A stretch of DNA of 64,000 nt from an uncultured Acidobacteriota bacterium (GTDB lineage: Bacteria; Acidobacteriota; Vicinamibacteria; Vicinamibacterales; CAVVIG01), in NCBI GenBank assembly GCA_963770995.1, contig CAVYRS010000001.1, forward strand, positions 502,815-566,814. The letters are read 5' to 3'. The notes beneath the pieces are model-generated. The model was not told the DNA's origin. It did not search any database and saw only the letters and a program-made list of their open reading frames with translations. Below are positions 15,131 to 60,255 of the stretch, piece by piece. Each line of letters starts with the position of its first letter. The stretch's first letter is position 1. A program made the position numbers and the translations under genes.

Positions 15131-16972
15131 TCAGTCGACGCCGAAAGCCAGCAGGACGTTGCCCGGCCGCAGGCCGAAGGCGCCGTAGCCGGAGCTCACA
15201 TAAACGCGCCCGCCGGCGACAACGGGCGCCGGCCCGTACATCGATCCGCCCCTGGCCTTCACGCGGTTGACGGTCGTGAACTCCCGGTTGCTGTCGAACG
15301 ACCACACCACCGCTCCGTCCGCCGTCGAGTGGGCGCGCGCGACGCCGTCGTTCGATGGGGAAAAGACGACGCCGCGAATCACTGTCACGGCGGAGAACAA
15401 CGCGCTGCTGCACGCGCGGCTCGGTTTGCCGCAGGCCGGCGCGGCGGGAGCCGCGAGCCACGCGCGATGGCCGGTTGCCAGATCGAGCGCGTGCAGCCCA
15501 CCGGGTTCCGGCGCGTAGATGTCGGCAATCGGAACGTACGCGTGCTGCCCGTCCGCGGCGACACCCCACTGCGTTCCGCCCAGTCCCGTTCCGACGCCGG
15601 CTCGATGGCGCCAGACGAGAGCGCCTTTCCGATCCGGATCGAGCGCGTAGGCCACGCCGGATTTCTGCCCGACAACGATCAGGTCGCGGCGCGGCGAGAC
15701 GGCAACGAGCGCCGGCGCGGCCCCGATGTCGAAGTCGGGTCCAGGCCGCTCGGCACAGTTGACGTCGCCGGGCACGCAGCCGAAGAGATCGTTCGGCGTC
15801 AGTTGATGCGTCCATCGCATGGCCCCGGTTTTCAGATCGAACGCGACGATCGCATCCGTCGTCGGCTGCGGCGGTCCGCTGTAGGAGTTGCCGACGCCGA
15901 CGTACAGCGCGCCGCGCTTGGCATCGATCGTCGGCGCCGACCAGATCGCGCCGCCAGACGGTCCCCACAACTCGGTGCCGTTCGCGTAGACACGCAGCAG
16001 TGTCGGCGGATCGGCAATGGTGTGGGTCTTCCACACTTCCTCTCCGGTGACGGCGTCGAGCGCGACGACGCTTCCCCGAAACGTGCAGCAGGGGTAGCCG
16101 GGCGCTCTGCCGCCTTCTTCGTAGGACGAAGTGGGCACGTACAGCCGGCCTTCATGCAGGGTTGGCGATCCTGTGAGTCTGACGAGCAGATGGTCGTCAA
16201 CCTTACGGCTCCATAAGAGCCGGCCATCGGATGCGTCAGCCGCGTAAACGTAGCCTTGTAGATCTGCGAAGTACGCCGCGTAACGGCGGGCGCTCCGGGC
16301 GACGCCGGGCGGACTCACCATACCAACCGAAATCGACGCGCGCACACCGGCGTGCGCTTCGAACGTCCATGCGATGCAGCCCGTTCGGGCGTCGAGCGAG
16401 TAGACGATGCCGTTCTGACCGCCGACGAACAGACGGCCGCCCGCAACCGTCGGCTGGGCCCATGCGGATGTCGTGTCCGGAAAGCCGAAGGCCCATTTCA
16501 AACGGAGGCGCGGCACCTGATCGGCGGTGAGGCCCGCCTGCGCGGCCGGTTGAAAGTGTGTGTTGCCGGGACCGGGCCCCCAGCCATTCCAGTGCGGGCC
16601 TGTCGCGGGATCCGTCATCGGCGGGATGCGCGGGCAGCGGCCGAGGGTGGCGCCGCTGACCGTTCCGCGCAGCGTTCGGCCCGTGATGAATTCGGCCACG
16701 GCGCGGCGTTCTGGTCCACTCAGCGCGAGTCCCTGGTAGCGCATGGAGCCGGACGTGAGCGCGTCCACGATCGCCTGCGGAGAACGGCCGCTCATCGCGT
16801 CCTGCGTCGGCGCGCGCGGATCGTCGCCGTCGTGACACGACTGGCAGGCCCGCTCGAAAATCGCCTGGCCGTCCACGGGCGCCGGTGCCGGTGCCGGTAT
16901 CTGCGCCAGCGCGGCGGCAAGGCACACGGCGGGCACGACCAGAAAGGGGATGACCAGACGGCTAGGGACCAC
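15131..16972 (-). CDS. cytochrome c domain fused to a PQQ-repeat (BamB-like) beta-propeller dehydrogenase-like protein
   Basis: 613 aa with a signal peptide and one CxxCH (ERACQSCHDG) at the N-terminus. Repeated propeller segments follow (GGRLFVGGQNGIVYSLDARTGCIAWTF, YVYAADASDGRLLW, VVALDAVTGEEVWK, LHALDLATGHRAW). Confidence 0.8.
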   Translation of the reverse strand: MVPSRLVIPFLVVPAVCLAAALAQIPAPAPAPVDGQAIFERACQSCHDGDDPRAPTQDAMSGRSPQAIVDALTSGSMRYQGLALSGPERRAVAEFITGRTLRGTVSGATLGRCPRIPPMTDPATGPHWNGWGPGPGNTHFQPAAQAGLTADQVPRLRLKWAFGFPDTTSAWAQPTVAGGRLFVGGQNGIVYSLDARTGCIAWTFEAHAGVRASISVGMVSPPGVARSARRYAAYFADLQGYVYAADASDGRLLWSRKVDDHLLVRLTGSPTLHEGRLYVPTSSYEEGGRAPGYPCCTFRGSVVALDAVTGEEVWKTHTIADPPTLLRVYANGTELWGPSGGAIWSAPTIDAKRGALYVGVGNSYSGPPQPTTDAIVAFDLKTGAMRWTHQLTPNDLFGCVPGDVNCAERPGPDFDIGAAPALVAVSPRRDLIVVGQKSGVAYALDPDRKGALVWRHRAGVGTGLGGTQWGVAADGQHAYVPIADIYAPEPGGLHALDLATGHRAWLAAPAAPACGKPSRACSSALFSAVTVIRGVVFSPSNDGVARAHSTADGAVVWSFDSNREFTTVNRVKARGGSMYGPAPVVAGGRVYVSSGYGAFGLRPGNVLLAFGVD

Positions 16973-17019
16973 GGAATCGAAAAACGATCATAACCGTGCA
17001 CGTGTAGAATCAGAGCGAA

Positions 17020-17598
17020 ATGCAACCACGAAGCCACGAAACCACGAAGAAGAACCGGTCTTTTTCGTGTCTTCGTGTTTTCGTGGTTGCGGTTGGGTTG
17101 GTGTCAGGTGGTGTAGGTACGGCGCAGACGCATCGGCTCCCGCAACCGGGCGTGCGCTACGTCCCGTCTCCACAGAGCGTCGTCGATGCGATGCTCGAGT
17201 TGGCGCACGTCACCTCAGCCGACGTCGTCTACGACCTGGGCTCTGGAGACGGCCGGATTCCGATCACTGCGGCGCAGCGCTACGGCGCGCGGGGTGTCGG
17301 CGTCGAGATCGAACGGCGGCTGGTGGCCGAGGCCGCGAGCAACGCGGCGAAGGCGCACGTGGCCGGCCTCGTCTCGTTCGTTCATGGAGACTTGTTCGAA
17401 GCCGACATCCGGCCGGCGACGGTGATCGCGATGTTCCTGCTGCCGCGGATGATCGACGAGCTCTTGCCGAAGTTCAAGCGCGATCTCCGGCCCGGAGCCC
17501 GCATCGTCTCGCACGGATACGACCTGGGTCCGAGTTGGCCGCCCGAACAGACGCGAGACGTCAGCGGCCTCACCATCCATCTCTGGACGATTCGATAG
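17020..17598 (+). CDS. class I SAM-dependent methyltransferase (start uncertain: ATG 17020 lies inside the repeat; TTG 17098 / GTG 17101 are alternatives)
   Basis: YVPSPQSVVDAMLELAHVTSADVVYDLGSGDGRIPITAAQRYGARGVGVEIERRL...FVHGDLF. The first ~24 codons (MQPRSHETTKKNRSFSCLRVFVV) are the translated hairpin element. Confidence 0.8.
   Translation: MQPRSHETTKKNRSFSCLRVFVVAVGLVSGGVGTAQTHRLPQPGVRYVPSPQSVVDAMLELAHVTSADVVYDLGSGDGRIPITAAQRYGARGVGVEIERRLVAEAASNAAKAHVAGLVSFVHGDLFEADIRPATVIAMFLLPRMIDELLPKFKRDLRPGARIVSHGYDLGPSWPPEQTRDVSGLTIHLWTIR
17022..17090. repeat. octamer-array hairpin element (CACGAAG class)
   Basis: GCAACCACGAAG-CCACGAAA-CCACGAAG, loop AAGAACCGGTC, then the inverse TTTTTCGTG-TCTTCGTG-TTTTCGTGGTTGC. 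It lies in a divergent 5' region. Confidence 0.9.
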
Positions 17599-17613
17599 GG
17601 ACGGAGGCGCCCG

Positions 17614-18375
17614 ATGATGATCGCCGGATTGCTCTTGGCTCTGCTCACCGCTCAAGGTCCAGCGGAGGTCGAACAGGGCAAGCAGCTGTTCAACGGCATG
17701 TGCGCACGGTGCCACGGCATCGACGGGACCGGCGACGAAGGTCCGAGCCTGAACCGGCCGGTGCTGGCTCGCGCCACCAGCGACGATGCCTTGCGCGAGG
17801 TGATACGGGACGGCATTCCCGATCGCGGCATGCCTCGCGTGCGCCGGATGACGGACAACGAGCTGGATCAGCTCGTCGCTTATGTCCGGTCGCTCGGACG
17901 GACGGCATCAGTGGCAACCACCGGCAATGTGGACAAAGGCCGCGCGACGTACGAGAAGCTGGGCTGCGCCGCCTGCCACATCGTGAAAGGACAGGGCGGC
18001 AGCTTCGGTCCGGATCTCACGCACATCGGGATCAATCGGGGAGCGGCATACCTGCGGCAGTCGTTTCTGGGACCCTCGGAGACGCTGCCCCGTGGAACGT
18101 CTCCGGTGCCAGGTCGCGGATTCACCGAATACCTCCCCGTTCGCGTCATCACCAACGACGGACGCGAAGTGCGCGGCGTCCGCATCAACGAGGATCCGTT
18201 CACGATTCAGATGCGCGACTCGGCCAACCGTTTTCACTCGTTTCGAAAGAGCGACACGAAGGAAGTCGAGAAAGAGTTCGGCAAGAGCCTGATGCCCAGC
18301 TACCGCGGCCGCCTGACCGACGCCGAAACCGAAGATCTGGTGGCCTTTCTTGCGAGTCTGCGAGGTGCCCAGTGA
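17614..18375 (+). CDS. di-haem c-type cytochrome
   Basis: Signal peptide MMIAGLLLALLTAQG. Two CxxCH motifs (GMCARCHG, LGCAACHIV). GGAGG upstream. Its stop overlaps the next start (GTGA at 18372-18375). Confidence 0.85.
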   Translation: MMIAGLLLALLTAQGPAEVEQGKQLFNGMCARCHGIDGTGDEGPSLNRPVLARATSDDALREVIRDGIPDRGMPRVRRMTDNELDQLVAYVRSLGRTASVATTGNVDKGRATYEKLGCAACHIVKGQGGSFGPDLTHIGINRGAAYLRQSFLGPSETLPRGTSPVPGRGFTEYLPVRVITNDGREVRGVRINEDPFTIQMRDSANRFHSFRKSDTKEVEKEFGKSLMPSYRGRLTDAETEDLVAFLASLRGAQ

Positions 18376-19958
18376 GGCGAATCCTCATCGTCCTGCTTTT
18401 GCTCTGTCCGTTCGCTGTCTCGGCGCAGGTTCCGTATCCGCGTATCGCGGCAGGCGACCGCACGCCGGCCGACTGGCTCACCTATTCGGGCAACTACCAG
18501 GCGCATCGCTTCTCGTCGCTGACACAAATCAACCGCCAGAACGTCTCGCAATTGAGACCGGCGTGGATCTACCAGGTGCGCCGCACGGGGATCGTCGAGA
18601 CGAGCCCGATTGTGGTCGACGGCGTCATGTACATCACGGAACCGCCGAGCACGGTGACGGCGCTCGACGTGCGGACGGGCCGTCCGCTCTGGACCTACAC
18701 GCCCGAGATTCCGACCGACGTCATCGTGATCGGATCGCCGCCGGTCAACCGCGGCGTCGCCATCCTGGACGATTCCGTGTTCGTGGGAACGGTGCATGGA
18801 CATCTGATCGCTCTCGATACCAAGTCCGGAGCGGTGCGATGGGACACTCAGGTCGACGACAACAAGTTCGGCTACTACGTGACCTCGGCGCCGCTGGCGG
18901 TCGACGGGCGGATCCTCATCGGCGTATCCGGCGCTGAGGCCGGGATTCGCGGATTCCTCGACGCCTACGACCCGAAAACCGGGAAGCGGGTCTGGCGCAC
19001 GCATACGATTCCGGCCCCGGGTGAGCCGGGCTCCGAGACCTGGAGCGGCGACGCGTGGAAGACCGGGGGCGGTTCCATGTGGCTGACCGGTTCGTACGAT
19101 CCCGAGCTGAACTTGATCTATTGGGGAACCGGAAATCCTGGACCCGATTGGAACGGAGATGTGCGGCCGGGCGACAACCTGTTCACCTGCTCGCTGCTCG
19201 CCATCAACGCCACGGACGGAAAGATCAAGTGGCACTTCCAGTTCACGCCACATGACATCCACGACTGGGACTCGAATGAGATTCCGGTGCTGTTCGAGGC
19301 TCCTGTCGAAGGTCGGCCGCGCAAGCTGGTGGCGATGGCCAACCGAAACGCGTTCTATTACGTGCTCGATCGCGAGACAGGCGAATTCCTCTCAGCCTTG
19401 CCGTACGCGAAGCAGACGTGGGCCGAGCGAATCGATGCGAAAGGCCGACCCGTTCGCCGGCCCGGCACGGCGCCCTCGGTGGAAGGCACGCTCGTGTTCC
19501 CGAACATCGTTGGCGCGTCGAACTGGCCGAGCCCGTCCTACAGCCCACAGACGCGCTTGTTCTACCAGGCTGCGCGCGAAATGGGGACCTACTTCTACAA
19601 AGGCGAGTCGGTCTACAAGCCCGGCGAAGCGTTCGTCGCGGGGGGCGGCCGCGCCGTGAACGGCGACGATGCGTGGGGCGCCGTGCGGGCGCTGGAGTCG
19701 ACCACCGGCAAACTGAAATGGGAATTCAAGCTCGTGACGCCGCCGCTGGCCGGTGTGCTGTCCACGGCCGGCGGTCTGGTCTTCAGCGGCACTGACGAAG
19801 GCAACTTCTTCGCGCTCGACGCGGACACCGGCAAGCCGCTGTGGGACACGCAGCTCGGCGGCGCGGTCCGGGCCAATCCGATGTCGTTTTCCGTCGACGG
19901 CAAACAGTATGTTGCGATTGCCGCCGGCTATGCGCTGTTCGTGTTCGGACTGCCGTAA
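18372..19958 (+). CDS. PQQ-dependent alcohol dehydrogenase family quinoprotein (8-bladed propeller), possible lanthanide-type
   Basis: GTG 18372. Signal peptide VRRILIVLLLLCPFAVSAQ. Motifs: WLTYSGNYQAHRFS, ETSPIVVDGVMY, ALDVRTGRPLW, GGGSMWLTGSYDPELNLIYWGTGNPGPDWNGDVRPGDNLFTCS, FTPHDIHDWDSNE. The first 474 codons of track ORF 16950..19958 are a shadow frame. Confidence 0.9.
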   Translation: MRRILIVLLLLCPFAVSAQVPYPRIAAGDRTPADWLTYSGNYQAHRFSSLTQINRQNVSQLRPAWIYQVRRTGIVETSPIVVDGVMYITEPPSTVTALDVRTGRPLWTYTPEIPTDVIVIGSPPVNRGVAILDDSVFVGTVHGHLIALDTKSGAVRWDTQVDDNKFGYYVTSAPLAVDGRILIGVSGAEAGIRGFLDAYDPKTGKRVWRTHTIPAPGEPGSETWSGDAWKTGGGSMWLTGSYDPELNLIYWGTGNPGPDWNGDVRPGDNLFTCSLLAINATDGKIKWHFQFTPHDIHDWDSNEIPVLFEAPVEGRPRKLVAMANRNAFYYVLDRETGEFLSALPYAKQTWAERIDAKGRPVRRPGTAPSVEGTLVFPNIVGASNWPSPSYSPQTRLFYQAAREMGTYFYKGESVYKPGEAFVAGGGRAVNGDDAWGAVRALESTTGKLKWEFKLVTPPLAGVLSTAGGLVFSGTDEGNFFALDADTGKPLWDTQLGGAVRANPMSFSVDGKQYVAIAAGYALFVFGLP

Positions 19959-20039: not shown

Positions 20040-20999
20040 ATGCATCATCGCTCTTTCCACCTCGCCTGGCTCGTCGCCGCCCTCGTCGCCATCGGCACGG
20101 CTACGCCGACGAGCCAATCGAAGAAACCGATCCCACGCACCACCGACGGCCGTCCGGATCTCCAGGGCACCTGGGACTTCGCGCAGCTGACCCCGTTGGA
20201 ACGGCCCTCCGAGTTCAAGGACAAGGATTCGATCACCGAAGAAGAGGCGGAAGAATTCGCGCAGCGGCGCATCGAGACCAGCAATAAGGATCGCCGCGAC
20301 GGTGGCGCCGCAGCCGACGTCGAACGCGCCTACAACGACTTCTGGTGGGACTTCGGGACACGCATCGCCAAGCAGCGATCGCTCGTCGTGGATCCCCCGG
20401 ACGGCCGCATCCCGCCGCTCACCGACGATGCGCGCGAGCGCAACGCGCAGCGCCGCGTGCTCTACGAGAACCCCGAAGAGCGGCCGCTGCCCGAACGCTG
20501 CATCCTCGGTTTCAACTCCGGACCGCCGATGGTGCCGAGCGCGTACAACAACAACATGCAGCTCGTCCAAACGCCGCGGCACGTGATGATTCTCAACGAG
20601 ATGATCCACAGCGCCCGCGTCGTGGACATGAGCGGCCGCCCGCACATGCCCAAGTCGATGCGCTTTCTGACCGGCGACTCGATCGGACGGTGGGAAGGCG
20701 ACACGCTGGTGGTAGACACGACGAACTTCTCGAAGGAGCGGGCCTTCCGCGGTGCGAGCGCCAACATGCACCTCGTTGAGAAGTTCACGCGCGTCGATCG
20801 CGACACGCTCCGTTACGAGTTCACCGTGGACGATCCGTCGGTCTGGACGAAGAGCTGGACGGTGTCGATGCCGATGGCGCTCTCGAACGAACTGATGTTC
20901 GAGTACGCCTGCCACGAAGGCAATTACGCACTCGAAGGGGTCCTGAAAGGCGCGCGGTATCAGGAGAAGCAGCCCAAGTCCCAGGAAAAAGAAAAATAG
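20040..20999 (+). CDS. exported hypothetical protein
   Basis: 319 aa. AAGGAG lies 8 nt upstream. Signal peptide LAWLVAALVAIGTATP. Good GC3. I recognise no family. Confidence 0.7.
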   Translation: MHHRSFHLAWLVAALVAIGTATPTSQSKKPIPRTTDGRPDLQGTWDFAQLTPLERPSEFKDKDSITEEEAEEFAQRRIETSNKDRRDGGAAADVERAYNDFWWDFGTRIAKQRSLVVDPPDGRIPPLTDDARERNAQRRVLYENPEERPLPERCILGFNSGPPMVPSAYNNNMQLVQTPRHVMILNEMIHSARVVDMSGRPHMPKSMRFLTGDSIGRWEGDTLVVDTTNFSKERAFRGASANMHLVEKFTRVDRDTLRYEFTVDDPSVWTKSWTVSMPMALSNELMFEYACHEGNYALEGVLKGARYQEKQPKSQEKEK

Positions 21000-24215: not shown

Positions 24216-24283
24216 GAACTTAGAAGGGCTGCGACGCCGGCCTCGTTGTCCGTCTAACTTCTGAATTCTAACTTCTAACTTCC
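24214..24283. repeat. heptamer-array hairpin element (TAACTTC / GAAGTTA class) between convergent genes
   Basis: The right arm is TAACTTC-TGAATTC-TAACTTC-TAACTTC (24255-24282). The left arm AAGAACTTAGAAGG is shorter. The loop is GC-rich. Confidence 0.7.
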
Positions 24284-25620
24284 TACAGGAAGATCGCGCC
24301 GGCGACGACTCCCACGATCATCACGGCGACGGATAACAGCGCGACCATCCGGAATCGCTGTAGCGATCCGCCGAGCAGCATCATGCACGGCAGGCTGACC
24401 GCCGGCAGCACGACCAGCAGCGCCGCGGCCGGACCGTTGATGCCAGCCTGAATCAGCTCCAACGCCATCGGGATCTCAGACCAGGTGGAGATCATGAACA
24501 ACGTGCCGGCGATGGCCGACACCAGCACGCTGGGCAGGTTGTTGCCGAATGCCGATGGCAGCGTCTGAAACACCGCGGACGCAAGCACGCTCCACACCCA
24601 CAACGTCGGCACCAGGACCAGAGCGATGCGGCCGCTCGCGTACAGCCAGGATCCAATCAGCTGCGACGCCGTCTCGACCTTGCGGCCCGCCACGATCCGG
24701 TCAAAGTCCAGCAGCCCCAGGTAGAAGCGGCTGAAGGTCCGCCTAATGGTGGACCCCACGTACGGAGCTCGATTCACCTCGTACGTGGAGTCCGCAGCCT
24801 CCATAGCGTACGTGGGGTCCGGCTTTAGCCGGACCTTCACCCCCGCGTCCCATCGGTCGGCCACTCGAGAAATGAGATACGTGACCAGCACCGTGACGAC
24901 CACGCCGGCGACGACGCGCGTCACCGCGAACGGCACCGGCAGGAGCGCGAACGCCAGGACCAGCGTCGTGACGTTCAGCATGGGGGCGCCGACGACGAAC
25001 GAGAGCAGGAAGTTCGTGGAGGCACCGCGGCGGGCGAACGAGGGCGCCATCACCGACGAGCAGCAGGAGCAGAACGGCTGCGGCAGCGCAAACAGCGCGC
25101 CGAACAGCGAACCGGTGAAGCCGTCGCGGACGAAGTACGGCTTGAAGTACACGGGCAGGATTGTCAGCGCCAGCCCGGAAATCAGAATACCCAGCATCGT
25201 CGCGTGCCAGACGTTGAACAGGTAGCTGGTCGCCTGCGCGAACGGCCGCCACCATGCGGTCACGCCGAACGCGTGCAACCAGTCCATGTTGATGCGGCCG
25301 GACGCCATCGAGCGCGCCGCCGGCACGCCGCGATACGCGAACAGATCGATCACCAGCAGCGCCAGGATCGCAAACGTCAGCGGCTTGAGGTATCGCGCCG
25401 TGGGGGCGTCCTGCGCCTCGCGCATCCGCAGGCCGCGAAAGGACACGAGCATGCCGACGACGCCCGCCGCGAACAGTGGCACCTGCCACGGGTTGAACAC
25501 GTAGAACAGCGTGCGGACGGGATATGCGGCGAAGAGGAACCCGCGACGAAAATCGACGAGCGCCAGCAGGGCAACGCCCAGGCACACGACGAAGGCCATC
25601 GCCAACCGGCGGGCTGTCAC
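24283..25620 (-). CDS. permease of the UPF0718/DUF318 (ArsP-like) family, carrying an in-frame palindromic-element insertion
   Basis: 445 aa, polytopic. Signature: ALPQPFCSCCSSVMAPSFARRGAS. The central loop contains VRLKPDPTYAMEAADSTYEV, encoded by the repeat at 24782-24840. Confidence 0.85.
   Translation of the reverse strand: MTARRLAMAFVVCLGVALLALVDFRRGFLFAAYPVRTLFYVFNPWQVPLFAAGVVGMLVSFRGLRMREAQDAPTARYLKPLTFAILALLVIDLFAYRGVPAARSMASGRINMDWLHAFGVTAWWRPFAQATSYLFNVWHATMLGILISGLALTILPVYFKPYFVRDGFTGSLFGALFALPQPFCSCCSSVMAPSFARRGASTNFLLSFVVGAPMLNVTTLVLAFALLPVPFAVTRVVAGVVVTVLVTYLISRVADRWDAGVKVRLKPDPTYAMEAADSTYEVNRAPYVGSTIRRTFSRFYLGLLDFDRIVAGRKVETASQLIGSWLYASGRIALVLVPTLWVWSVLASAVFQTLPSAFGNNLPSVLVSAIAGTLFMISTWSEIPMALELIQAGINGPAAALLVVLPAVSLPCMMLLGGSLQRFRMVALLSVAVMIVGVVAGAIFL
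24782..24840. repeat. palindromic element (one intact copy plus one degenerate copy) in frame inside the permease ORF
   Basis: ACGTGGGGTCCGGCTTTAGCCGGACCTTCAC (24810-24840), preceded by the degenerate TACGTGGAGTCCGCAGCCTCCATAGCGT. Confidence 0.85.
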
Positions 25621-25807: not shown

Positions 25808-27256
25808 CTACTGTTTTTGCGACGGCTTGGTGACCGTCAACTCGGTGACCACCTGGCTGTCCACGGAGTACTCGGTGAAGGGCTGGTACATCTCGTCCCA
25901 GCTCTGCTCCGACCAGAACACTTCGAGATTCGGCGACGGGTTCCAGCGGTTCTTCGGCGAGTTGTCGTAGGCGCCGATGCCGAGAATCTTGCTGCCGGCC
26001 GGAATCTTCAGCGGCTCGGCGAGCTCGTACTGAATCTGCCAGTTGAAGTCGAACTTCGGCACGTCGAGAATCGTCTGCTCGCGGCCGTCGGGATAGACGA
26101 TCACCCACTTCAGGCTCTTGCCGCGCACATGCATGTGCGGGGACATCGCGTAGAGCGTGATGTCTTCCGTCACCGGCGTGATGCCCGTGAGCTTCCAGTT
26201 CTCGGCGTACGCCGGAATGTTGGGCGTCTTGCTGCGCCGGCGCGTGCTGCCCTCTTCGGCGGTGTACTCGACTTCCTTCCCTTCGGCGCGATACAGCGAG
26301 AGGCCGCCCTTGGTCGTCGCCAGCGGATCGCCGGCCTGGCGAATCAGCACTTCGTGCGTCACCGGCACCTTGTTGAACCAGATCCCCAGGCGCGTGCGGT
26401 CGGTGGCTTCCTTGCCGATCGGGTTGTAGTGCACCTGCCAGTTGATGTACTTGCCGGCGGGAATGCGCTTGCCGATGTCCGCGCGATGGGCATCCACGCC
26501 ACGGCCCGGAACCCAGGACAACAGCTTGTTCGCGCCCGGCAACGCCGTCGTGTCAGCACGGCCCGCGAGGCCTTCGCCGCGATCGGTCGCCGGCTTGCCG
26601 TCGGGTGCGATCAACCTGCCCTGCGCGTCGATGGTCGCCCCTTCAGGAATGTCCACGACGAAGACGCCCGCGTGATGGACGAGCGATCGGTTGCCGGGCC
26701 GGATTTCCAGCACCTCCGCGAAGCGATCCTCCTTGAACGGCACCTTCGAGTAGAACATCTGCACGCCGAGCTCGCCCTCGGCCGGAATCGTGAACTCGAT
26801 CGGCATCTCGAGGATGTAGTCCGGCTCGCGGCCGTAGGTCCAGCCGTCCGCGAACTTCGGCAGCGCCGGCAGATCCGCGTCGTTGCCTTTCGGCGCCCCG
26901 CCGTCCACCCACGCGACGATCGTGTCGATCTGCTGCTTGGAGAGGCTGCGGTCGTTCCGCATCTTCAGCGAGTGGTCGGGGTCGGCGCCCCACGGCGGCA
27001 TCTCGCGCGCCTGAACCTTCGTCTTGATCACCTTCGCCCACGGCCGGACATCCTCGTACGAGAGGAAGGTCATCGGCGCCACTTCGCCGGCGCGGTGACA
27101 GGTCGCGCAGTTGTTGAAGATGATCGGCGCGACGTCTTTGGTGAACGTCGGCACGGCCGCGGGTGCCCCTTCGCTCAGGGCGGGCAGGCCAGCCGCGTGC
27201 ATCGTCGTCGCCGCGACTGCGAGGGTTCCAAGGAGCACTACAGCGGCACGCTTCAT
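25808..27256 (-). CDS. exported c-type haem motif + PHM/DBH-like copper monooxygenase-fold protein (uncharacterised family)
   Basis: 482 aa with a signal peptide. CxxCH: NNCATCHRAGE. The ligand-like motifs then occur in PHM order: LVHHAG ... WQVHYNP ... SPHMHVRG ... FDFNWQ ... SWDEMY. Confidence 0.75.
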   Translation of the reverse strand: MKRAAVVLLGTLAVAATTMHAAGLPALSEGAPAAVPTFTKDVAPIIFNNCATCHRAGEVAPMTFLSYEDVRPWAKVIKTKVQAREMPPWGADPDHSLKMRNDRSLSKQQIDTIVAWVDGGAPKGNDADLPALPKFADGWTYGREPDYILEMPIEFTIPAEGELGVQMFYSKVPFKEDRFAEVLEIRPGNRSLVHHAGVFVVDIPEGATIDAQGRLIAPDGKPATDRGEGLAGRADTTALPGANKLLSWVPGRGVDAHRADIGKRIPAGKYINWQVHYNPIGKEATDRTRLGIWFNKVPVTHEVLIRQAGDPLATTKGGLSLYRAEGKEVEYTAEEGSTRRRSKTPNIPAYAENWKLTGITPVTEDITLYAMSPHMHVRGKSLKWVIVYPDGREQTILDVPKFDFNWQIQYELAEPLKIPAGSKILGIGAYDNSPKNRWNPSPNLEVFWSEQSWDEMYQPFTEYSVDSQVVTELTVTKPSQKQ

Positions 27257-27291
27257 GACCCCTCCAAGGTGAAGATCCGGCGTAGTTTAGC

Positions 27292-27660
27292 CTATTTACT
27301 GGCTCCCGGAGCGCACGACGTCGTCGCGGTCGTGACCGAGGTCACGTTGACACGGCTCACCGGCGTTGCCTTGATGAAGAGGCCTTTAATCACGACGGTG
27401 TGGTCCTTGTGGGCGGGCATGTTGAACTCGAAGACGCCGATGAGCCGAAACTCGTTCTTCCCTGCCGGCGGCGTCGTAGGGACATCCTTCGGCGCCGGCG
27501 TGTTCGCGCTGCTCGGCACCGGGTCGGTGGCGCTGACGAGGGTCCACGTGTTCGGCGCGGACTCGCGGAGGCAGCCGGTGACGCTCACGATCTCGACCTT
27601 CGGCGCCGGCGCGGCCTGAGCCGCCAGCGCAGCAGCCGCCAGCACAGCTATCGCGGTCAT
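27292..27660 (-). CDS. small exported hypothetical protein
   Basis: ATG at 27660 (MTAIAVLAAAALAAQAAPAP...). It ends 35 nt upstream of the haem-c/PHM-like gene. The upstream part of the track ORF runs through a repeat. Confidence 0.6.
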   Translation of the reverse strand: MTAIAVLAAAALAAQAAPAPKVEIVSVTGCLRESAPNTWTLVSATDPVPSSANTPAPKDVPTTPPAGKNEFRLIGVFEFNMPAHKDHTVVIKGLFIKATPVSRVNVTSVTTATTSCAPGASK

Positions 27661-27692
27661 GGCGCGTATGATACCGCCAGTGACATACGGAT

Positions 27693-27756
27693 CAACGCAG
27701 AACACGCGGAACACGCAGAGCCGTTTTTCTCTGCGCGTTCTGCGAATTCTGCGTGC
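27693..27756. repeat. nonamer-array hairpin element (ACGCAGAAC class) in a divergent 5' region
   Basis: ACGCAGAAC-ACGCGGAAC-ACGCAGAG, loop CCGTTTTT, then CTCTGCGCG-TTCTGCGAA-TTCTGCGTG. Confidence 0.85.
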
Positions 27757-27763
27757 TACGTTC

Positions 27764-28285
27764 GTGACGGTCGCAATCGGGCTAGTCGCCTCGCAAGCAG
27801 GGGCGCACGACGTGGAGCGCACGCAGGTGCTGCTGGCGTTCGAGCGCGACGGATCGTTCACGCTCGACGTGTCCAACGATCCCAATTGGCTGAAGCTGCG
27901 TCTGGAACGGTTCAACGGAAACTTCATCGATCGCGTCGTACTGTTCGTGGACGGCCACGAGATCCGGCCCACGTCGATCGAATACATCGCCGGCGAAGCG
28001 ATGGCCACACAGCGCATGCGCGGCCGCTTCCCCACCGACGCGCGCACGCTGCGCTGGTACTACGGCATGGTTGTGGATCCGTATCCGCTCGCGATTCGGC
28101 GGGCCGATGGTCGTGTCGTGGTTGAAGAAATTGCGGGCGATGCGTGGAGCGGCGCCATTGACGTGAGCGGTCAGTTCAAGGCGCCGCTGCTCTCCGAGCG
28201 GAGCGTCGTCGTGCTCGTGATTGGCTTGTTCTGCGCGCCGCTATTGCTGCGTCGAGCCCGTCGCGGCCGGCACGAACTTCTGTAG
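27764..28285 (+). CDS. hypothetical protein with C-terminal TM anchor (start uncertain; GTG 27764 chosen)
   Basis: Good GC3 throughout. C-terminal VVVLVIGLFCAPLLLRRARRGR. The track ORF N-terminus (27659..) is the translated repeat. The 3' end overlaps the convergent NHL gene by 45 nt. Confidence 0.55.
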   Translation: MTVAIGLVASQAGAHDVERTQVLLAFERDGSFTLDVSNDPNWLKLRLERFNGNFIDRVVLFVDGHEIRPTSIEYIAGEAMATQRMRGRFPTDARTLRWYYGMVVDPYPLAIRRADGRVVVEEIAGDAWSGAIDVSGQFKAPLLSERSVVVLVIGLFCAPLLLRRARRGRHELL

Positions 28286-29386
28286 CCGCTGGCCGTAGGT
28301 GTCGGCCGCGTACACCGCACCCTTCGAGTCGACGACGATGCCGTGGACCCAGTCGAACTCGCCAGGTCCCCAACCCTGCTTGCCCCAGATCGCGAGAATC
28401 TTGCCGTCCTTCAACGAGAACTTCACCACGCGCTCGTCTTTGTGATCGGCGATGAATCCAACGCCGTCGGTGCCTTTCCGCGAGATGTTCACGTCCCACG
28501 GATTCCAGTCATTTCGAATCTCGCGAACGTAGTTCAAATTCTTGTCGAACACCTCGATCCGGTGACCCTCGCGATCGATGATGTAGAGGTTCTCGTCGGC
28601 GTCCACCGCGAGCTTGTGCGGGAGATTCCATTCACCGGGCCCCGTCCCCTTGTCGCCGGGACCACCCGCGCCCTTCGCCACCTGTTTGATGAACTTGCCG
28701 TTCTTGTCGAAGAGGATCACACGGTTGTTGCCGTACCCGTCGGTGACGATCATGTTGCCGTTGCGGAGAATCGCGATGCCTGACGGCAGGTCCAGGTGCG
28801 TCGGATCGTTCCCCTTCTCGTTCGTCGTCCCGAGCTGGAGCAGGAACTTGTCCAGTTTTGGACCAAGTTTGACGATGCGGTGGGCGTCGCGCTCGATGAC
28901 GTAGACGTTGCCTTCCCAGTCCACGCCGCCCGAGTGCTGCCAGGACGGGTTGATCGTCTTGCCGTTGATCTCCTGATCGCCGCCGGCGAGGATCAGGTTG
29001 CCGTCGCGGTCGAACACCATGACCGGCTTCGCGCCGCGGTTGAACACGTAGATGTGATCCTGCGCGTCGATGGCGAGGCCGGAAATCCCCGGCTGGTTCG
29101 TCGGGCCGCCGGACATCTGATTGCCGCCCTGCCCTGAGCCTGTCGAAGGGGCACCGGTACCACCCGCCCGTGGTGAGCTTGTCGAACCACGTGCGCGCCG
29201 TGCCGCGGCCAGCGCCTCACGCTCGGCCGGAGGCGGCGGTGGCTCCTTCAATCCGAAGAACATCCCCTGCGGCAGCTTCGGCCAGTTCGGCACGCGCCTG
29301 TAGCCGCCGTCGCCTTGGGCCTGCATCGCGGTAGATACCAGCAACAACGCTGCAACCGCCAAGAGCGCGAACACAACTCGTCGCAT
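28241..29386 (-). CDS. exported NHL-repeat six-bladed beta-propeller protein (PAL-like)
   Basis: ATG 29386 with GGAGG 5 nt upstream. Signal peptide MRRVVFALLAVAALLLVSTAMQAQ. Repeated NHL blades: GLAIDAQDHIYVFNRG, VDWEGNVYVIERDAHRIVKL, IAILRNGNMIVTDGYGNNRVILFD, LAVDADENLYIIDREGHRIEVFD, IVVDSKGAVYAADTYGQRLQKF. Confidence 0.85.
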   Translation of the reverse strand: MRRVVFALLAVAALLLVSTAMQAQGDGGYRRVPNWPKLPQGMFFGLKEPPPPPAEREALAAARRARGSTSSPRAGGTGAPSTGSGQGGNQMSGGPTNQPGISGLAIDAQDHIYVFNRGAKPVMVFDRDGNLILAGGDQEINGKTINPSWQHSGGVDWEGNVYVIERDAHRIVKLGPKLDKFLLQLGTTNEKGNDPTHLDLPSGIAILRNGNMIVTDGYGNNRVILFDKNGKFIKQVAKGAGGPGDKGTGPGEWNLPHKLAVDADENLYIIDREGHRIEVFDKNLNYVREIRNDWNPWDVNISRKGTDGVGFIADHKDERVVKFSLKDGKILAIWGKQGWGPGEFDWVHGIVVDSKGAVYAADTYGQRLQKFVPAATGSTQQ

Positions 29387-29480: not shown

Positions 29481-30712
29481 CTAAACTCTCGCGGGCACTG
29501 CCGCACGCGCGGGCTCCGCATGCGGGTTCTTCGCCATGAACAGCGTCGCGAGCGCAACAATCGACACGCCGGCGGCAATGAAGAACGCCCACCGGTATTC
29601 GCCGGTGGCGACGTACACGCGCCCGCCGAGATACGGACCGAGGATCCCGGCGACGCCCCACGCCGTGAGCAGCAATCCGTAGTTGAAGCCGACGTTTTTC
29701 GTTCCGTAGAAGTCCGCGCTCGTGGACGCGTACACCGACAACTGCGTGCCGTAGCAGTAGTAGACGAGCGCGAGCAGCAGGTAGAAGAGGACGACATTCT
29801 CGCGCAGCAGGAAGAGCAGCGGCATCGTGGCGGTCGACACGAAGAGCAGAAGGCGGATCGTATTCAAGCGGCCCACGCGATCCGACATCCACCCCGACAG
29901 CACGCGGCCGACACGCTGCCGATGGCGCCGACGGTGATTGCATAGGCGGCAGCCGTCGCACCGTGCCCCGCAGCGCGCGCGAACGGCACGAGCTGGCTGA
30001 TCACCATCGTGCCCGCCGTCGTGCCCAGACAGTAGGCGACCCACAGCGCCCAGAACGTCTGCGTGCGCACCATATCCGACGCCATCATGTCCGCGCCGCC
30101 GCGAGCGGCCGCGCGAGCCATCGCCGGATCCCAGCCCTCCGGCCGGTATCCCGGTGGAGGGTTCTGCAGCAAGTACGTCGCGATCAGCGTCATCGCGAAG
30201 AACAGCAGCGCAAAAATCTGGAACGTGCTCCGCCAGCCGACCTGTTCGATCAACGACGAGGCGATCGGACCGAAAATCCCGGACCCCGCGCCATAGCCGC
30301 CGACCATCATCCCCACCACCAGGCCGCGCTTGTCCGGAAACCATTTCGCGCCGACCGAGGTCGGCACGACGTAGCCGAAGCCGCCGCCGATGCCCGAGAT
30401 GAACCCGGCGGTCACGAAGAACCAGGTCAGGGACTGGGTGTAGCTCGCGAGGAAGAAGCCGAGGCTGAACAGCGTGCCGCCGATCGCCGCCACGATGCGC
30501 GGGCCGCGCAGATCGTGAATGCGCCCGGCGAACACGTACCAACCGGCGACCATCGCAATGCCAATCGTCGTCACCCACGACGTCTGCGCGCGCGTCGAGC
30601 CGAACTCTTTTTCGAGCGGCAGCATGAACGCGCTCATCGCATAGAGCGTACCCAGGGTGATGTTCAGCATCACGCCGCCGACAACGGGGAGCGAGCGATT
30701 CGGCGTGTTCAT
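29481..30712 (-). pseudogene. MFS transporter (oxalate/formate antiporter-like) with one frameshift
   Basis: The N-terminal 270 aa lie in the frame of track ORF 29864..30745 (MNTPNRSLPVVGGVMLNITLGTLYAMSAF...AITVGAIGSV). The C-terminal 140 aa lie in the frame of ORF 29481..30779 (GRVLSGWMSDRVGRLNTIRLLLF...). The junction is consistent with a 1-nt deletion near 29909-29912. Confidence 0.8.
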
Positions 30713-31314
30713 CGGCTCGTCGGGGCCGCAACGTCCTTGCGCCACCAGGGGTTGCCGTAATTGCGATACGGCCCGCCATCCACCGACAGCGTCGTCGCCA
30801 CCTTGTAGTTGAGCGGCGACAGCAGGCGCAGCGCGTGCTTGATGCGAAGCGTCTTGCCGGCGTGGTTGAACGGCGAGCTCTCGAAGTAGATGTTGTAGTA
30901 GCCGCCCAGATCGCCGCCGATCGTGCCGATCTGCAAGTAGGTGAAGCCGCGGCTGTCGGTCGCCTGCCGCGCGAGCGCTTTCTGCTCCTTGTGGTACGCG
31001 ATCAGCTCACGAAGCTTGAAGGCGCCGCCGGGCCCGACGGCGTCCGTGTTCGCCTCGTAGAATCGCCCGTCGACCGGCTTGTAGACCGTTGTGCCGGTGA
31101 TGCGGCCCGCCGGACCGAGCGGCCCCTCGGGCACGTCCCACTCGAACGTCCACTTGCCGGGAAAGTACTCGTCGAAGTTGAACGGCGGCAGCGCGTCCTC
31201 GGATTTCGTCGGCCGGCCAAGATCGGGCATCTGGCCCTTCGGGAGCGGAGTCTGCGCAGCGAGCGCCCCAGCCGCCAGAACTACTCCCAGTGCCGGCAAC
31301 AATAGATCTGCCAC
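30709..31314 (-). CDS. exported hypothetical protein
   Basis: GTG 31314 gives M-ADLLLPALGVVLAAGALAAQTP (signal peptide). Its TGA overlaps the ATG of the MFS gene (ATGA at 30709-30712). The start codon lies within the terminal GCCACGAAG of a hairpin element. Confidence 0.65.
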   Translation of the reverse strand: MADLLLPALGVVLAAGALAAQTPLPKGQMPDLGRPTKSEDALPPFNFDEYFPGKWTFEWDVPEGPLGPAGRITGTTVYKPVDGRFYEANTDAVGPGGAFKLRELIAYHKEQKALARQATDSRGFTYLQIGTIGGDLGGYYNIYFESSPFNHAGKTLRIKHALRLLSPLNYKVATTLSVDGGPYRNYGNPWWRKDVAAPTSR

Positions 31315-31374
31315 GAAGACACGAAAACACGAAGAAGACTTCCTTGGGTTTCGTGCTTTCGTGATTTCGTGTCT
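31310..31374. repeat. octamer-array hairpin element (CACGAAG class)
   Basis: GCCACGAAG-ACACGAAA-ACACGAAG ... TTTCGTG-CTTTCGTG-ATTTCGTGTC. Confidence 0.9.
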
Positions 31375-31418
31375 GCTTCGAACGCCTCGGCTCATTGCGT
31401 GCTCCACGCCCCGGAAGT

Positions 31419-31913
31419 CTATCGCACGTCCACGCCGTTCGACCATTTCTCCATCGTAAACAGCGGCGTACCGAAGAGCTCGTAGGGTGGCGCGCTCGTG
31501 CGGACGAAACCGGCGCGCTCGTAGAGCTGAATCGCGGAGGCCAGGAACGGTGTTGTGCTCAAATAGAAATGGTGACGGTTCTGCGCGGCGGCGAACTCCT
31601 CCACCTGATGCAGCAGGTTCCGCGCGATTCCGCAGCCGCGCGCCGCGGGCCCAACCGCCATGCTGCGAACGTACACGCCATCCGGTCGGACCACGGCGGA
31701 CACAGTTCCGGCGATCCCGCCGTCGTGTTCGGCGACCCAGATCGGGCCGTCGGCGAATCGCCGCTCGATTTCGTCCCGGCTCAGCGTGGTGGCACGATAC
31801 CCGTCGGGCGTGTAGAGACGCTCGAATTCGACGAAGGCGTCGGCGAGCAGCGATGCAATCGCTTCGGCGTCGGTCGGCGCCGCCACCCGGACGGCAACAG
31901 TGTCGACAATCAT
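31419..31913 (-). CDS. GNAT family N-acetyltransferase
   Basis: ATG 31913 (MIVDTVAVRVAAPTDAEAIASLL...). Acetyl-CoA motif VGPAARGCGIARNLL. Confidence 0.85.
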   Translation of the reverse strand: MIVDTVAVRVAAPTDAEAIASLLADAFVEFERLYTPDGYRATTLSRDEIERRFADGPIWVAEHDGGIAGTVSAVVRPDGVYVRSMAVGPAARGCGIARNLLHQVEEFAAAQNRHHFYLSTTPFLASAIQLYERAGFVRTSAPPYELFGTPLFTMEKWSNGVDVR

Positions 31914-49529: not shown

Positions 49530-49692
49530 ACGAGAACACGGAGGTTTTCGGAGGGCACGGTTTTAGACGGAGGCACGAAGGCACGGAGGAAAACGGACAG
49601 AGACAGCGATGGGCAGTTCGACGGGTCGAACTTCTGTCTTCTTCGTGCGTCTTCGTGTCTCCGTTCCTCCGTGTGAGATCCGTGCGCTCCGC
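49530..49692. repeat. ~160-bp composite hairpin (CACGGAGG/CACGAAGG arms) with a central perfect palindrome
   Basis: The left arm at 49530-49606 contains CACGGAGG, GACGGAGG, CACGAAGG, CACGGAGG, ACAGAGACAG. The centre is AGTTCGAC-GG-GTCGAACT. The right arm at 49634-49690 reads TCTGTCTTCTTCGTGCGTCTTCGTGTCTCCGTTCCTCCGTG... Confidence 0.8.
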
Positions 49693-51477
49693 TACCTTCG
49701 TTGGCTCAGATACAGGGTGCGTTGTCGCCGCAGCTCGCTCGCGAGCGGGTCGGCGGGCGCCAGGAGAAGCGCGGCGTCAATCGCCTCGATCGCGCGCTCG
49801 AATTGACCGTCGGCCGCGTACGCGGATGCGAGGTTCGCGAACCCGTTGGCCACGGCCGGCTGCAGCCGCACGACCTCTCGATACTCTCGAACCGCGTCAC
49901 CGAACTTGCGCTGCTGCATGAGCACGCTGCCGAGGTTGTTGTGCGCGTTGGCGTATTGCGGGTCGATCTCCAGGGCGCGCCGATACTCGGTCGCGGCTTC
50001 ATCCAGCCGGCGGGCGACGGTCAGCGCGGTGCCCAGGTTGTAGTGTGCGGCGGCGGACCCGGGTTTCAGAGCGAGCGATGCGCTGAAGTGCTTCACTGCG
50101 TCATTGGCGCGCCCCAGTTCGAGATTCAGCAGGGCGGCATCGTCGTGCAAGCCGGCGTCGCTGGGATGCTTCTCGATCTCCACGCTCGTAGCCGATCACG
50201 TCTTCGGCGAGGACCTTCGGCCGAAAATCACTGATCAGCCGATCGAGCTCGCTCGCGTCCTTCGTCAACACCTGGATCCAGAGATCGCCCATCTCGTCCG
50301 ATGAACGCTGTCCCCACCTCGCCCGTTTCGGCGGCTGATCCGGATTGCGCGGGTTCTCCGCGGAGTTGTCGTAGGTGTAGCGCATCGACAGCCGCGTTCC
50401 TTTCGGAAAATGCAGCGGCGTGGCGAACCGGTAGACGTGCTGCCACCGGAAATCCCAGTCCTTGATCCCGATCAGCGGCCGGACGGTGCCATCCGGCAGC
50501 ACCGCCTCGCCCCGCACGTCGCGCGCGCGGTAGTGCGCGTGCGGCTGCACGGCCTGCACGTCCACGTCCACCGGCACCACGTACGAGTCGGTAATCGTGT
50601 ACTCCTTCTGACCCGCGGGAATGTCGATGCTCTGCCGCCCGAGACGCAGCATCGCCGGCGTCCGCGTCGGCGCCGCGTCGCTGAAATACAAGCCGACCGA
50701 CGGCGCCACCGATTCCGGCTTGCCGCTCGGCCGCATGTGCAGCTCGACGACGAGATCGGAGTGCACGTCGAGACGCCAGGACAGATCCTTCGGCAGCAGC
50801 GGCGCAACCTGGCCGGGCGTCCAGCCGAGAAAATGGCCGGCGGGGTACTGCGCCGAATGCGCGATCAACCCGTCGTATCCCGGACCAGGCTGCGCCTCGT
50901 CGAGGCCGCGCGATGCGGGCGTCTTGTCGATGCGGATGTTGGCGTGATGCACCACCCTGGGATTTCCCGGACGGAATTCGAGCGCCCGCACGAATCGAAT
51001 GGCCGATGTCGGAATCGGGATCACGAAGATTCGAAACGCATCGGTGCCGTCCGGCGGCAGCGTGTACGCCTGCGGGAGCGTGATGATGACGTCCGGCTGA
51101 CCAAGCTGCCAGCCTTCGTTCCACGTCCGCGCCGGCGGGCGCGGCGACGGGTTGCCTTCGGCGCTGCCCTCATCCACCCAGCGGCGGATCAATCGGATTT
51201 CCTCATCCGAGAGCGGACGCTGATCGACGAACGGACCGTTTGACGGATCGGCCTTCCACGGCGGCATGTAGCGTCGTTCGGTGACCGCCGCGACGAGCGC
51301 CGCACGGCGCTTCACGTCGTCGTAGGTAAGCAGATTGAACGGCCCCGATCCGCCGGGGTGATGGCACATCGCACAGCGATCGGCGACGAGCGGCGCGATG
51401 TCTTTCGAGTAGGTGACCGGCTGTGCAAAAACCTCGACATGAGTTAGCACAAACGCGACCGCAAGCAGACGTTTCAA
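49692..51477 (-). pseudogene. haem-c/PHM-like monooxygenase-fold + TPR protein, split by one frameshift (or two overlapping ORFs)
   Basis: TTG 51477 gives MKRLLAVAFVLTHVEVFAQP. CxxCH: ADRCAMCHHPGG. Then VVHHANIR, VVELHMRP, QPHAHYRA, WDFRWQ, SSDEMGDLWIQV...LAEDVIGYE. The TPR part (VEIEKHPSDAGLHDDAALLNLELGRANDAVKHF...) continues in another frame (track ORF 49692..50183). The intact paralogue 55532.. has both parts fused. Confidence 0.7.
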
Positions 51478-51482
51478 AATCG

Positions 51483-51609
51483 ACGTGGGGTCCGCCTTCA
51501 CGTGGACCAAGGTCCGGCTAAAGCCGGACCCCACGTACAGCCAGGTCCGGCTAAAGCCAGACCCCACCAAAATACGTCTTCCTCGTGTTTTCGTGTTTTC
51601 GTGGTTGCC
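51483..51609. repeat. cluster: three palindromic-element copies next to a solo arm of a CACGAA-type hairpin
   Basis: ACGTGGGGTCCGCC..., AAGGTCCGGCTAAAGCCGGACCCCACGTA (51509-51537), CAGGTCCGGCTAAAGCCAGACCCCACC (51541-51568), then CTTCCTCGTG-TTTTCGTG-TTTTCGTGGTTGCC (51577-51609). No partner arm is present. Confidence 0.8.
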
Positions 51610-51617
51610 TTTGGTCG

Positions 51618-52187: not shown

Positions 52188-52294
52188 GGTCGAAGCCAAG
52201 ATAGCACGAACAAAAAAGGGCTGAGGCGTTTCCACCCCAGCCCTTCGACGAACCACGAACGACGAACGAAGGTCGAAGACCTACGAACGTCGCC

Positions 52295-55417: not shown

Positions 55418-55531
55418 GCTGTTTCCTCCTCGGAGTCCACGAGAACCAAAGTTTGGTCCGAGGAAAAACCTACACCGAAGGGTGGCGAGAATCTACGGGG
55501 AATTTGACAAACGGAGACGTCTGGCCCGCCG

Positions 55532-57859: not shown

Positions 57860-57937
57860 CGCTGGTTTAGCATAGCGCTGTTGCCGCCCAAGAAAGTCGT
57901 TCGACCGCTCGCGCTGGAAACCCGCGTCGATCGCCCG

Positions 57938-60247: not shown

Positions 60248-60255
60248 TCCAAGTC

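Follow-up and report, generated by a model that had tools for sequence, protein, structure and literature searches.

A haem c domain fused to a predicted PHM/DBH-type two-copper core in a Vicinamibacterales genome, and the large bacterial family to which it belongs

A 64,000-nt stretch of DNA from an uncultured Acidobacteriota bacterium of the order Vicinamibacterales (contig CAVYRS010000001.1, positions 502,815 to 566,814; hereafter referred to as the window) was analyzed with a focus on a gene for an exported protein of 482 amino acids, hereafter cytCu, and on a neighboring gene for an exported six-bladed propeller built of NHL repeats, hereafter NHL. A preliminary description of the window had noted in cytCu a CxxCH haem motif followed by motifs arranged as are the copper ligands of peptidylglycine α-hydroxylating monooxygenase (PHM). 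It had also suggested that NHL, having the fold of peptidyl-α-hydroxyglycine lyase (PAL), might act with cytCu in a two-step amidation. Our analysis by family profile, predicted fold and ligand conservation confirmed cytCu as a predicted fusion of a haem c domain with a PHM/DBH-type two-copper core. We consider it probable that cytCu acts in the periplasm as a self-contained monooxygenase of the non-coupled two-copper (PHM/DBH) type, in which the fused haem c with His/Met ligation would be the point of electron entry. The link to NHL, in contrast, held in one narrow lineage only when the two genes were followed across genomes.

All motifs listed in the preliminary description were present, in the order given, on the open reading frame (ORF) of cytCu; their positions are collected in the table below. 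A diversity alignment was prepared from 35 relatives that share 28–47% identity and include both full-length paralogues from the window. Very few columns of this alignment are invariant overall. Among those identical in 35 of 35 sequences are C50, C53 and H54 of the haem motif, M86, P87 and P88, and, in the region corresponding to the copper core, H194, H276, H374, H376, W406, Q407 and M456; one sequence lacks H195 (34 of 35). The possibility that the chain of motifs is a coincidence was rejected, since its residues are invariant at this level of divergence.

A profile built from the 35-member alignment reached rat PHM over both of its copper domains (E = 8e-8) as well as human DBH (E = 2e-6). 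In the profile alignment HH, H, HxH and M of the bacterial family fall exactly on PHM His107/His108, His172, His242/His244 and Met314, and Q407 is aligned with Gln272, the second-sphere partner of His242 in PHM. The roles of the copper-ligand residues of PHM have been described (PMC12164859); they are also implied by the names of mutant entries among the PDB structures matched. A search of the PDB with the single cytCu sequence gave no match, and PHM was reached with the family profile only.

Structure prediction led to the same assignment. While an AlphaFold2 run on 22 orthologues of at least 82% identity gave a pLDDT of 33.6, the model based on the diverse alignment, which was the one used, had a pLDDT of 86 and a pTM of 0.84. 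When the PDB was searched with this model using Foldseek, the top 31 matches were all PHM or DBH structures (E-values from 2e-13 to 3e-10, probability 1.00, target-normalised TM-scores of 0.39–0.66). The next fold in the list, with an E-value of 5e-5, was weaker by about 8 orders of magnitude. The family profile, the Foldseek search and the invariance of the ligands thus agree on the fusion of haem c with a PHM/DBH-like core, and both the conservation check and the structure comparison that the preliminary description had called for came out in its favor.

The ATG codon of cytCu is preceded, at a distance of 6 nt, by a GGAGG ribosome-binding site, and the first 22 residues resemble a signal peptide. 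Pfam matches to the haem region (Cytochrome_CBB3, E = 2e-4; Cytochrom_C, E = 0.01) are both below threshold (21.9 versus 27 bits), and many cytCu orthologues carry a precomputed PF13442 assignment. With its CxxCH motif, a distal Met and the signal-like N terminus, this part of cytCu has the features of a class I c-type cytochrome domain, in which Met86 of the invariant MPPW motif would provide the axial haem ligand. The two Cys residues of CxxCH are the only ones in the protein.

Next to the copper ligands, the substrate-binding residues of PHM were considered. Arg240 of PHM binds the C-terminal carboxylate of the substrate (PMC12164859). The corresponding column holds Ser in cytCu and F, M, S, Q, G, Y, W or other residues, never K or R, in the 35 members of the alignment. 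The columns of Asn316 and Tyr318, which we take to be likewise part of peptide carboxylate binding in PHM, are variable. Since the carboxylate-binding Arg is missing, the substrate of cytCu is probably not a peptide with a C-terminal glycine, and cytCu is predicted to be an enzyme of the PHM/DBH class with a substrate other than that of PHM, not PHM proper. Residues flanking the CuM ligands differ among paralogues, which suggests that each may act on a different substrate.

The cytCu family is very large. An exhaustive HMMER scan of 1.84 billion representative sequences returned 15,879 clusters with E-values of 1e-3 or below, 9,624 at 1e-10 or below and 2,339 at 1e-30 or below. Counted in clusters of 50% identity, the family thus has a size of 15,879 or more. 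Its hosts belong to Acidobacteriota and Planctomycetota. The whole motif chain is present in 339 of the 361 family proteins that were fetched with a length of 400 amino acids or more. The closest 120 proteins, at least 80% identical to cytCu, were recovered from Vicinamibacterales and from soil metagenomes, under the names "hypothetical" or "cytochrome c". In longer relatives there is an AhpC/TSA-redoxin domain at the N terminus, and the modules at the C terminus vary (TPR, ankyrin, α/β-hydrolase, EF-hand, CBM48). This redoxin-fused branch is found in Planctomycetota (Gemmataceae, Pirellulaceae), where its members are labelled "peroxiredoxin" or "redoxin domain-containing protein"; 16 domain-shuffled redoxin-fused relatives of planctomycete and acidobacterial origin retain every haem and copper ligand.

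Gene neighborhoods were analyzed in 80 loci that a 10-member family alignment had retrieved out of 185,579 species genomes; 3 further loci were added by exact protein look-up. The loci were scanned with proteins of the window, and all ORFs within 6 kb were clustered across the 83 loci. Tandem arrays of 3–6 cytCu paralogues occur in other genomes; arrays of four to six paralogues on one strand are seen in Blastocatellia and other Acidobacteriota (loci L047, L054, L062, L064, L075 and L080). The same-strand arrays point to a strong lineage-specific expansion of the family.

The 64-kb window itself contains three full copies of the family and one remnant. The remnant, of 189 amino acids and 53% identical to cytCu residues 1–209, has lost the CxxCH segment in frame, and its ORF stops just past the HH motif; it is probably a pseudogene. 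A gene for an ArsP_1/SO_0444-like permease (24283..25620, minus strand) faces the remnant and is missing in the syntenic loci of other genomes. One of the two full-length paralogues of cytCu is 29% identical to it and has all the ligand motifs; its start and a redoxin gene (51618..52256, minus strand) have 4 nt in common, and a TPR gene follows on the downstream side. The other paralogue has a C-terminal TPR fusion, and its true start lies inside the ORF. Both are parts of two diverged paralogous cassettes at 49692..63207 on the minus strand, which share about 76% DNA identity over 300 nt at a spacing of 6,097 nt. Each cassette contains a gene for a TonB-dependent-receptor-like outer-membrane protein (52295..55417 and 60256..63207) and a haem-copper paralogue (50101..51621 and within 55532..57994). 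The first has the translationally coupled redoxin gene and a separate TPR gene (49692..50183), while in the second TPR is fused to the enzyme.

The NHL protein was examined next. Its gene lies 985 nt upstream of cytCu on the same strand; the likely start is the ATG at 29386, which has a GGAGG ribosome-binding site upstream, although the ORF extends to a GTG at 29410. Pfam assigned NHL repeats (E = 6.6e-23) and the six-bladed DUF5128 (E = 2e-18). In a phmmer search generic NHL proteins (Thin, TRIM71) outscored PAL, whose structure 3FVZ (residues 69–319) was matched with an E-value of 7e-22. BLASTP aligned NHL with rat PAL over 300 residues (27% identity, E = 5e-26). The PAL fold proposed for the exported propeller in the preliminary description was therefore borne out by Pfam and by the match to 3FVZ, and the likeness extends to the active site. 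With the rat PAL sequence and numbering checked against 3fvz and 5wm0, residues R125, H159, Y226, H265, R280 and H356 of NHL (counted from the GTG at 29410) correspond to R533, H585, Y654, H690, R706 and H786 of PAL. All six are kept in the window protein and in its orthologues from loci L001, L003, L008 and L009, as seen in BLASTP and MAFFT alignments. In PAL, His585, His690 and His786 are the Zn ligands, Tyr654 the catalytic residue, and Arg706 and Arg533 substrate-binding residues. Asp787, a Ca ligand of PAL, is Gly in all five NHL orthologues.

A second acidobacterial NHL clade (loci L084–L163, metagenome contigs) nearly always occurs as a tandem pair. The R-H-Y-H-R-H signature is present in 79 of 80 first copies and in 17 of about 58 second copies, the latter mostly lacking the three Zn histidines. 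The tandem looks like a pair of a catalytic and a non-catalytic propeller, and the difference in retention between the copies indicates that the six-residue signature is a selected marker and not a generic NHL feature. The view of the window protein as a mere generic propeller was rejected on the basis of this signature. The JGI pipeline occasionally labels NHL orthologues "peptidylamidoglycolate lyase". We conclude that the window NHL protein is PAL-like at the level of the active site, its lyase activity being predicted. It differs from PAL in being encoded by a separate gene, not fused to a hydroxylase, in the Asp787 to Gly replacement and in a Pro/Ala-rich insertion near the N terminus.

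The preliminary description had placed NHL and cytCu about 1 kb apart on the same strand with one plus-strand gene between them. The distance and orientation were correct, but there are two intervening genes, opp208 on the plus strand and small121 on the minus strand. The small121 gene, located 35 nt upstream of cytCu, codes for a secreted protein of 122 amino acids with two invariant Cys residues (C30 and C116) and a conserved H-x-G-H-x-V motif; it accompanies cytCu in 24 loci, and the two genes are probably co-transcribed. No Pfam or PDB relatives of small121 were found by library scan and profile search. As a candidate for a Gly-terminated precursor peptide small121 was rejected: the protein ends in K or C-D/E and resembles a folded domain with a Cys pair. 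A match to a σ70-like promoter consensus ends 7 nt short of the start codon of small121, a spacing typical of leaderless mRNAs. The divergent gene and the promoter-like site between NHL and small121 suggest that small121 and cytCu form a transcription unit of their own.

The annotated start of opp208 overlaps the start codon of small121, which makes it probable that translation begins further downstream than 27659. Its product, with a predicted mature N terminus AHDVERT, consists of a periplasmic N-terminal domain and one transmembrane helix of a HupE/UreJ-type metal permease. The orthologue in locus L006 matches HupE_UreJ_2 with an E-value of 2e-48, whereas the permease domain is gone from the window copy. 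This domain has been lost in the source genome and its nearest relatives; longer orthologues occur among those compared from L006–L009.

A gene for a DUF1579-like secreted protein is the most persistent neighbor of the cytCu orthologue group, being found within 6 kb in 26 of the 83 loci. At orthologues of 43–59% identity it lies directly downstream of cytCu on the same strand. A profile of this protein gave nothing significant in the PDB. Between this gene and NHL lies an MFS transporter gene (29481..30779, minus strand) that appears to be frameshifted: the N-terminal 293 amino acids (MFS_1, E = 7e-30) are in the frame of 30745..29864, and the C-terminal part of about 135 amino acids, homologous to a gene in locus L012, is in another frame, the switch falling near 29.87–29.92 kb. 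The MFS gene is missing in the syntenic block of L001 and L003.

Together with small121 and the DUF1579-like gene, genes for pyrroloquinoline quinone (PQQ)-dependent dehydrogenases are more persistent neighbors of the family than NHL; they overlap or abut the start of a cytCu paralogue in loci L034, L050, L051 and L055. The window encodes a PQQ-dependent dehydrogenase of 1002 amino acids with a long N-terminal extension. A dehydrogenase in L050 that is 68% identical to it ends 12 nt before a haem-copper paralogue, an arrangement that makes the PQQ enzyme a candidate physiological electron donor. TonB-dependent-receptor-like outer-membrane proteins are encoded near cytCu in 10 loci. A secreted protein of 319 amino acids (20040..20999, plus strand) has no significant match in Pfam or NCBIfam and recurs, often in several copies, near haem-copper paralogues, PAL-like NHL pairs and PQQ dehydrogenases (loci L007, L010, L012, L037, L039, L041, L065, L069, L083, L107, L115, L118, L139, L147 and L149). 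This recurrence suggests a shared periplasmic oxidative or uptake gene set in Acidobacteriota.

Table. Positions of cytCu, its motifs and domains, and of other features of the window
Feature	Position	Strand	Basis or remark
cytCu, 482-aa exported haem c + PHM/DBH-like two-copper monooxygenase (predicted)	25808..27256	-	ORF list, Pfam, profile, model
Signal-peptide-like N terminus, residues 1–22, MKRAAVVLLGTLAVAATTMHAAG	27191..27256	-	sequence inspection only
Mono-haem cytochrome c domain, residues ~36–125	26882..27151	-	sub-threshold Pfam, invariant residues
CATCH haem motif, residues 50–54	27095..27109	-	
MPPW, invariant; Met86 candidate axial ligand	26990..27001	-	
PHM N-domain equivalent (CuH site)	26357..26839	-	profile alignment, invariance, Foldseek
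LVHHAG, H194/H195 (PHM H107/H108)	26672..26677	-	profile alignment
WQVHYNP, H276 (PHM H172)	26429..26431	-	profile alignment
PHM C-domain equivalent (CuM site)	25847..26224	-	Pfam, profile, Foldseek, invariance
SPHMHVRG, H374/H376 (PHM H242/H244)	26129..26137	-	profile alignment
FDFNWQ, W406/Q407	26036..26041	-	Q407 (26036..26038) = PHM Q272
WDEMY motif	25889..25897	-	M456 (25889..25891) = PHM M314
small121, 122-aa secreted protein	27292..27660	-	called gene in source genome
σ70-like promoter match, TTGATC-16-TATCAT	27668..27695	-	consensus match only
opp208, periplasmic N-terminal domain + one transmembrane helix, HupE/UreJ-type metal permease	27659..28285	+	
NHL, exported six-bladed propeller, PAL-like active site	28241..29386	-	ORF to GTG 29410
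DUF1579-like secreted protein	30709..31446	-	neighbourhood clustering, Pfam
Truncated paralogue remnant, 189 aa	23646..24215	+	53% identical to cytCu residues 1–209
Full-length paralogue, all ligand motifs	50101..51621	-	29% identity
Second full-length paralogue, C-terminal TPR fusion	55532..57994	-	true start inside ORF
PQQ-dependent dehydrogenase, 1002 aa, long N-terminal extension	16950..19958	+	

The question of whether cytCu and NHL are coupled was addressed with the neighborhood set. Where the cytCu orthologue is at least 71% identical, NHL is adjacent in 5 loci (L001, L003, L004, L008 and L009), that is, in every locus with sufficient upstream flank. At 43–70% identity it is adjacent in 0 of 28 loci (0 of 21 with at least 4 kb on both sides), and below 43% in 0 of 45. 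In the reciprocal test, the second catalytic PAL-like NHL clade was represented by 80 metagenome loci totalling 662 kb, and a PHM-like gene was found in 0 of the 80. The refuting outcome named in the preliminary description, no co-occurrence of the two genes beyond chance, was thus largely what these loci showed, and the association of cytCu with NHL, while real, is lineage-specific; it provides weak evidence for a functional link.

These counts bear directly on the two-step amidation raised in the preliminary description, a bacterial counterpart of the PAM pathway in which cytCu would α-hydroxylate an N-acyl or peptidyl glycine and NHL would cleave the carbinolamide to an amide and glyoxylate. 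In addition to the confined adjacency, the Arg240 equivalent is never basic and those of Asn316 and Tyr318 are unconserved, the plus-strand gene and the promoter-like site split NHL from small121-cytCu, giving the appearance of separate transcription, and neither a precursor-peptide ORF near the pair nor a neighboring protein ending in Gly was found. As both families are abundant in these genomes, a single chance adjacency that was then inherited suffices as an explanation. On the other hand, the alignment of NHL with rat PAL, its six retained key residues, the selection acting on the same signature in the related clade and the occasional lyase label all fit such a pathway. Furthermore, the gene order DUF1579-NHL-opp208-small121-cytCu persists as a block in L001, L003, L008 and L009, and in part in L004, while the outer flanks differ, and locus L006 (cytCu 77% identical) has three further NHL genes directly downstream of the cytCu orthologue. 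The persistence of the block despite changing flanks, together with two intact active sites, keeps the idea alive, though we consider it unlikely.

Several observations weigh against a monooxygenase fed through its haem. The Pfam match of cytCu residues 346–435 to Cu2_monoox_C (E = 0.004) reaches 17.0 bits, where the cut-off is 23. PQQ dehydrogenase genes are found within 6 kb of cytCu in 23 of the 83 loci, but this is a raw count with no genome-wide density baseline, and such genes also occur near unrelated NHL loci. Finally, AhpC/TSA-redoxin is fused to, or encoded beside, many paralogues and may mean peroxide or thiol chemistry. Given how widespread the redoxin fusions are, we take a redox or peroxide-handling role to be the main rival: cytCu would be a periplasmic electron-transfer or oxidase-type protein, or one handling Cu(I)/Cu(II), with the copper sites serving as redox centres only. 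The translational coupling of redoxin to some relatives, their peroxiredoxin annotation and the flanking genes of metal-transport type (the HupE/UreJ-type remnant and the ArsP_1/SO_0444-like permease) are in line with it. It would not, however, account for the invariance of the full CuM set, two His and a Met, together with the second-sphere Gln, residues that tune O2 activation in PHM. Variation around CuM among paralogues is what changing substrates would predict, and tandem arrays of 3–6 copies match substrate diversification better than housekeeping. We therefore regard a purely redox role as quite improbable. The sub-threshold Pfam scores, and the presence of PNGase and CBM folds among the weaker Foldseek matches, could also point to a non-catalytic role for the PHM-like part, as a binding module of the PHM/PNGase F jelly-roll superfamily whose motifs match by coincidence. 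Invariance of six ligands and the second-sphere Gln at 28% identity and across phyla, and the lead of PHM/DBH over the next fold, effectively refute this, and we give it almost no credence. Cu2_monooxygen, the Pfam family of the N-domain, gave no match to cytCu, and both full-length window paralogues likewise have sub-threshold matches to Cu2_monoox_C and to cytochrome c families; copper-domain scores under the gathering threshold indicate that cytCu represents a distant branch and is not a member of the curated families.

For the predicted PHM/DBH-type monooxygenase the following scheme can be proposed. The protein would be exported by Sec, and haem would be attached in the periplasm. The haem domain would accept electrons one at a time in the periplasm, with a soluble cytochrome as donor or a PQQ/quinohaemoprotein dehydrogenase such as those encoded next to paralogues in other loci, and pass them to CuH (H194/H195/H276) and then to CuM (H374/H376/M456, with Q407 in the second sphere). 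O2 activated at CuM would serve to hydroxylate, at a C-H bond, a substrate that is located in the periplasm and is not a C-terminal glycine. The fused haem c would thus replace the ascorbate used by the eukaryotic enzymes, and small121, with its Cys pair, and the DUF1579-like protein would likely be accessory proteins. Metal and haem occupancy, the path taken by the electrons and its direction, the activity as a monooxygenase, and which donor and substrate are used are predictions of this scheme, next to the observed homology, fold, conservation of metal and haem ligands, family size and gene-neighborhood statistics.

The likeness of cytCu to known enzymes is greatest in the catalytic core. 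With PHM (1PHM/1OPM, the core of PAM) it has in common two jelly-roll domains, the order of CuH (HH...H) and CuM (HxH...M) ligands, the second-sphere Gln272, and the QVHY and DEM motifs. It is, however, only about 15% identical to PHM, bacterial and predicted to be periplasmic, has an N-terminal haem c domain that would be covalently fused, and lacks the Arg240/Asn316/Tyr318 triad, disulfides and a PAL fusion. DBH (4ZEL) and tyramine β-monooxygenase/MOXD have the same core and ligand set, with a Foldseek E-value of 4e-13 for DBH, and like DBH cytCu has no peptide-carboxylate site; in contrast to DBH, it carries the haem c domain in place of DOMON and dimerisation domains, and presumably receives its electrons from a protein and not from ascorbate. 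Fungal LPMO is fed by cellobiose dehydrogenase or by a PQQ-pyranose dehydrogenase with a cytochrome domain. By analogy only, an extracytoplasmic copper oxygenase, a haem conduit and, for cytCu, PQQ dehydrogenases encoded nearby are recurring elements; the fold is unrelated, LPMO has a histidine brace in place of two mononuclear Cu sites, and the haem of cytCu would be c-type and fused to the oxygenase itself.

To our knowledge, PHM, DBH and tyramine β-monooxygenase are regarded as forming a small class that is essentially eukaryotic and depends on ascorbate. Long-range electron transfer from CuH to CuM in this class is still debated. A full-text search limited to one literature library found no paper on bacterial or haem-fused PHM/DBH homologues. 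Judged by its sequence, cytCu appears to be a new bacterial variant of the class, drawn from a very large un-annotated family. If this is true, the class would acquire a bacterial branch with thousands of members, a built-in haem donor and no disulfides or glycosylation, in which electron entry could be triggered and traced optically through the haem. A very abundant set of genes in soil metagenomes, at present carrying the labels "cytochrome c", "peroxiredoxin" or "hypothetical", would be re-annotated.

In the broadest view, which we hold to be doubtful as a whole, there would exist a very large and so far unrecognised bacterial periplasmic class of PHM/DBH-type enzymes wired through haem c to cytochromes and PQQ dehydrogenases. 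Hydroxylation, which consumes two electrons, and alcohol dehydrogenation, which yields two, could then form a closed extracytoplasmic redox loop with which soil Acidobacteria and Planctomycetes would attack recalcitrant organic matter oxidatively, and one Vicinamibacterales member, paired with a PAL-like lyase, might be a counterpart or even a precursor of PAM. The lineage-specific pairing of cytCu with a PAL-like propeller whose active site is intact bears on the origin of PAM. For Acidobacteria and Planctomycetes, major players in soil carbon turnover, the family would represent an unexplored periplasmic oxidative chemistry.

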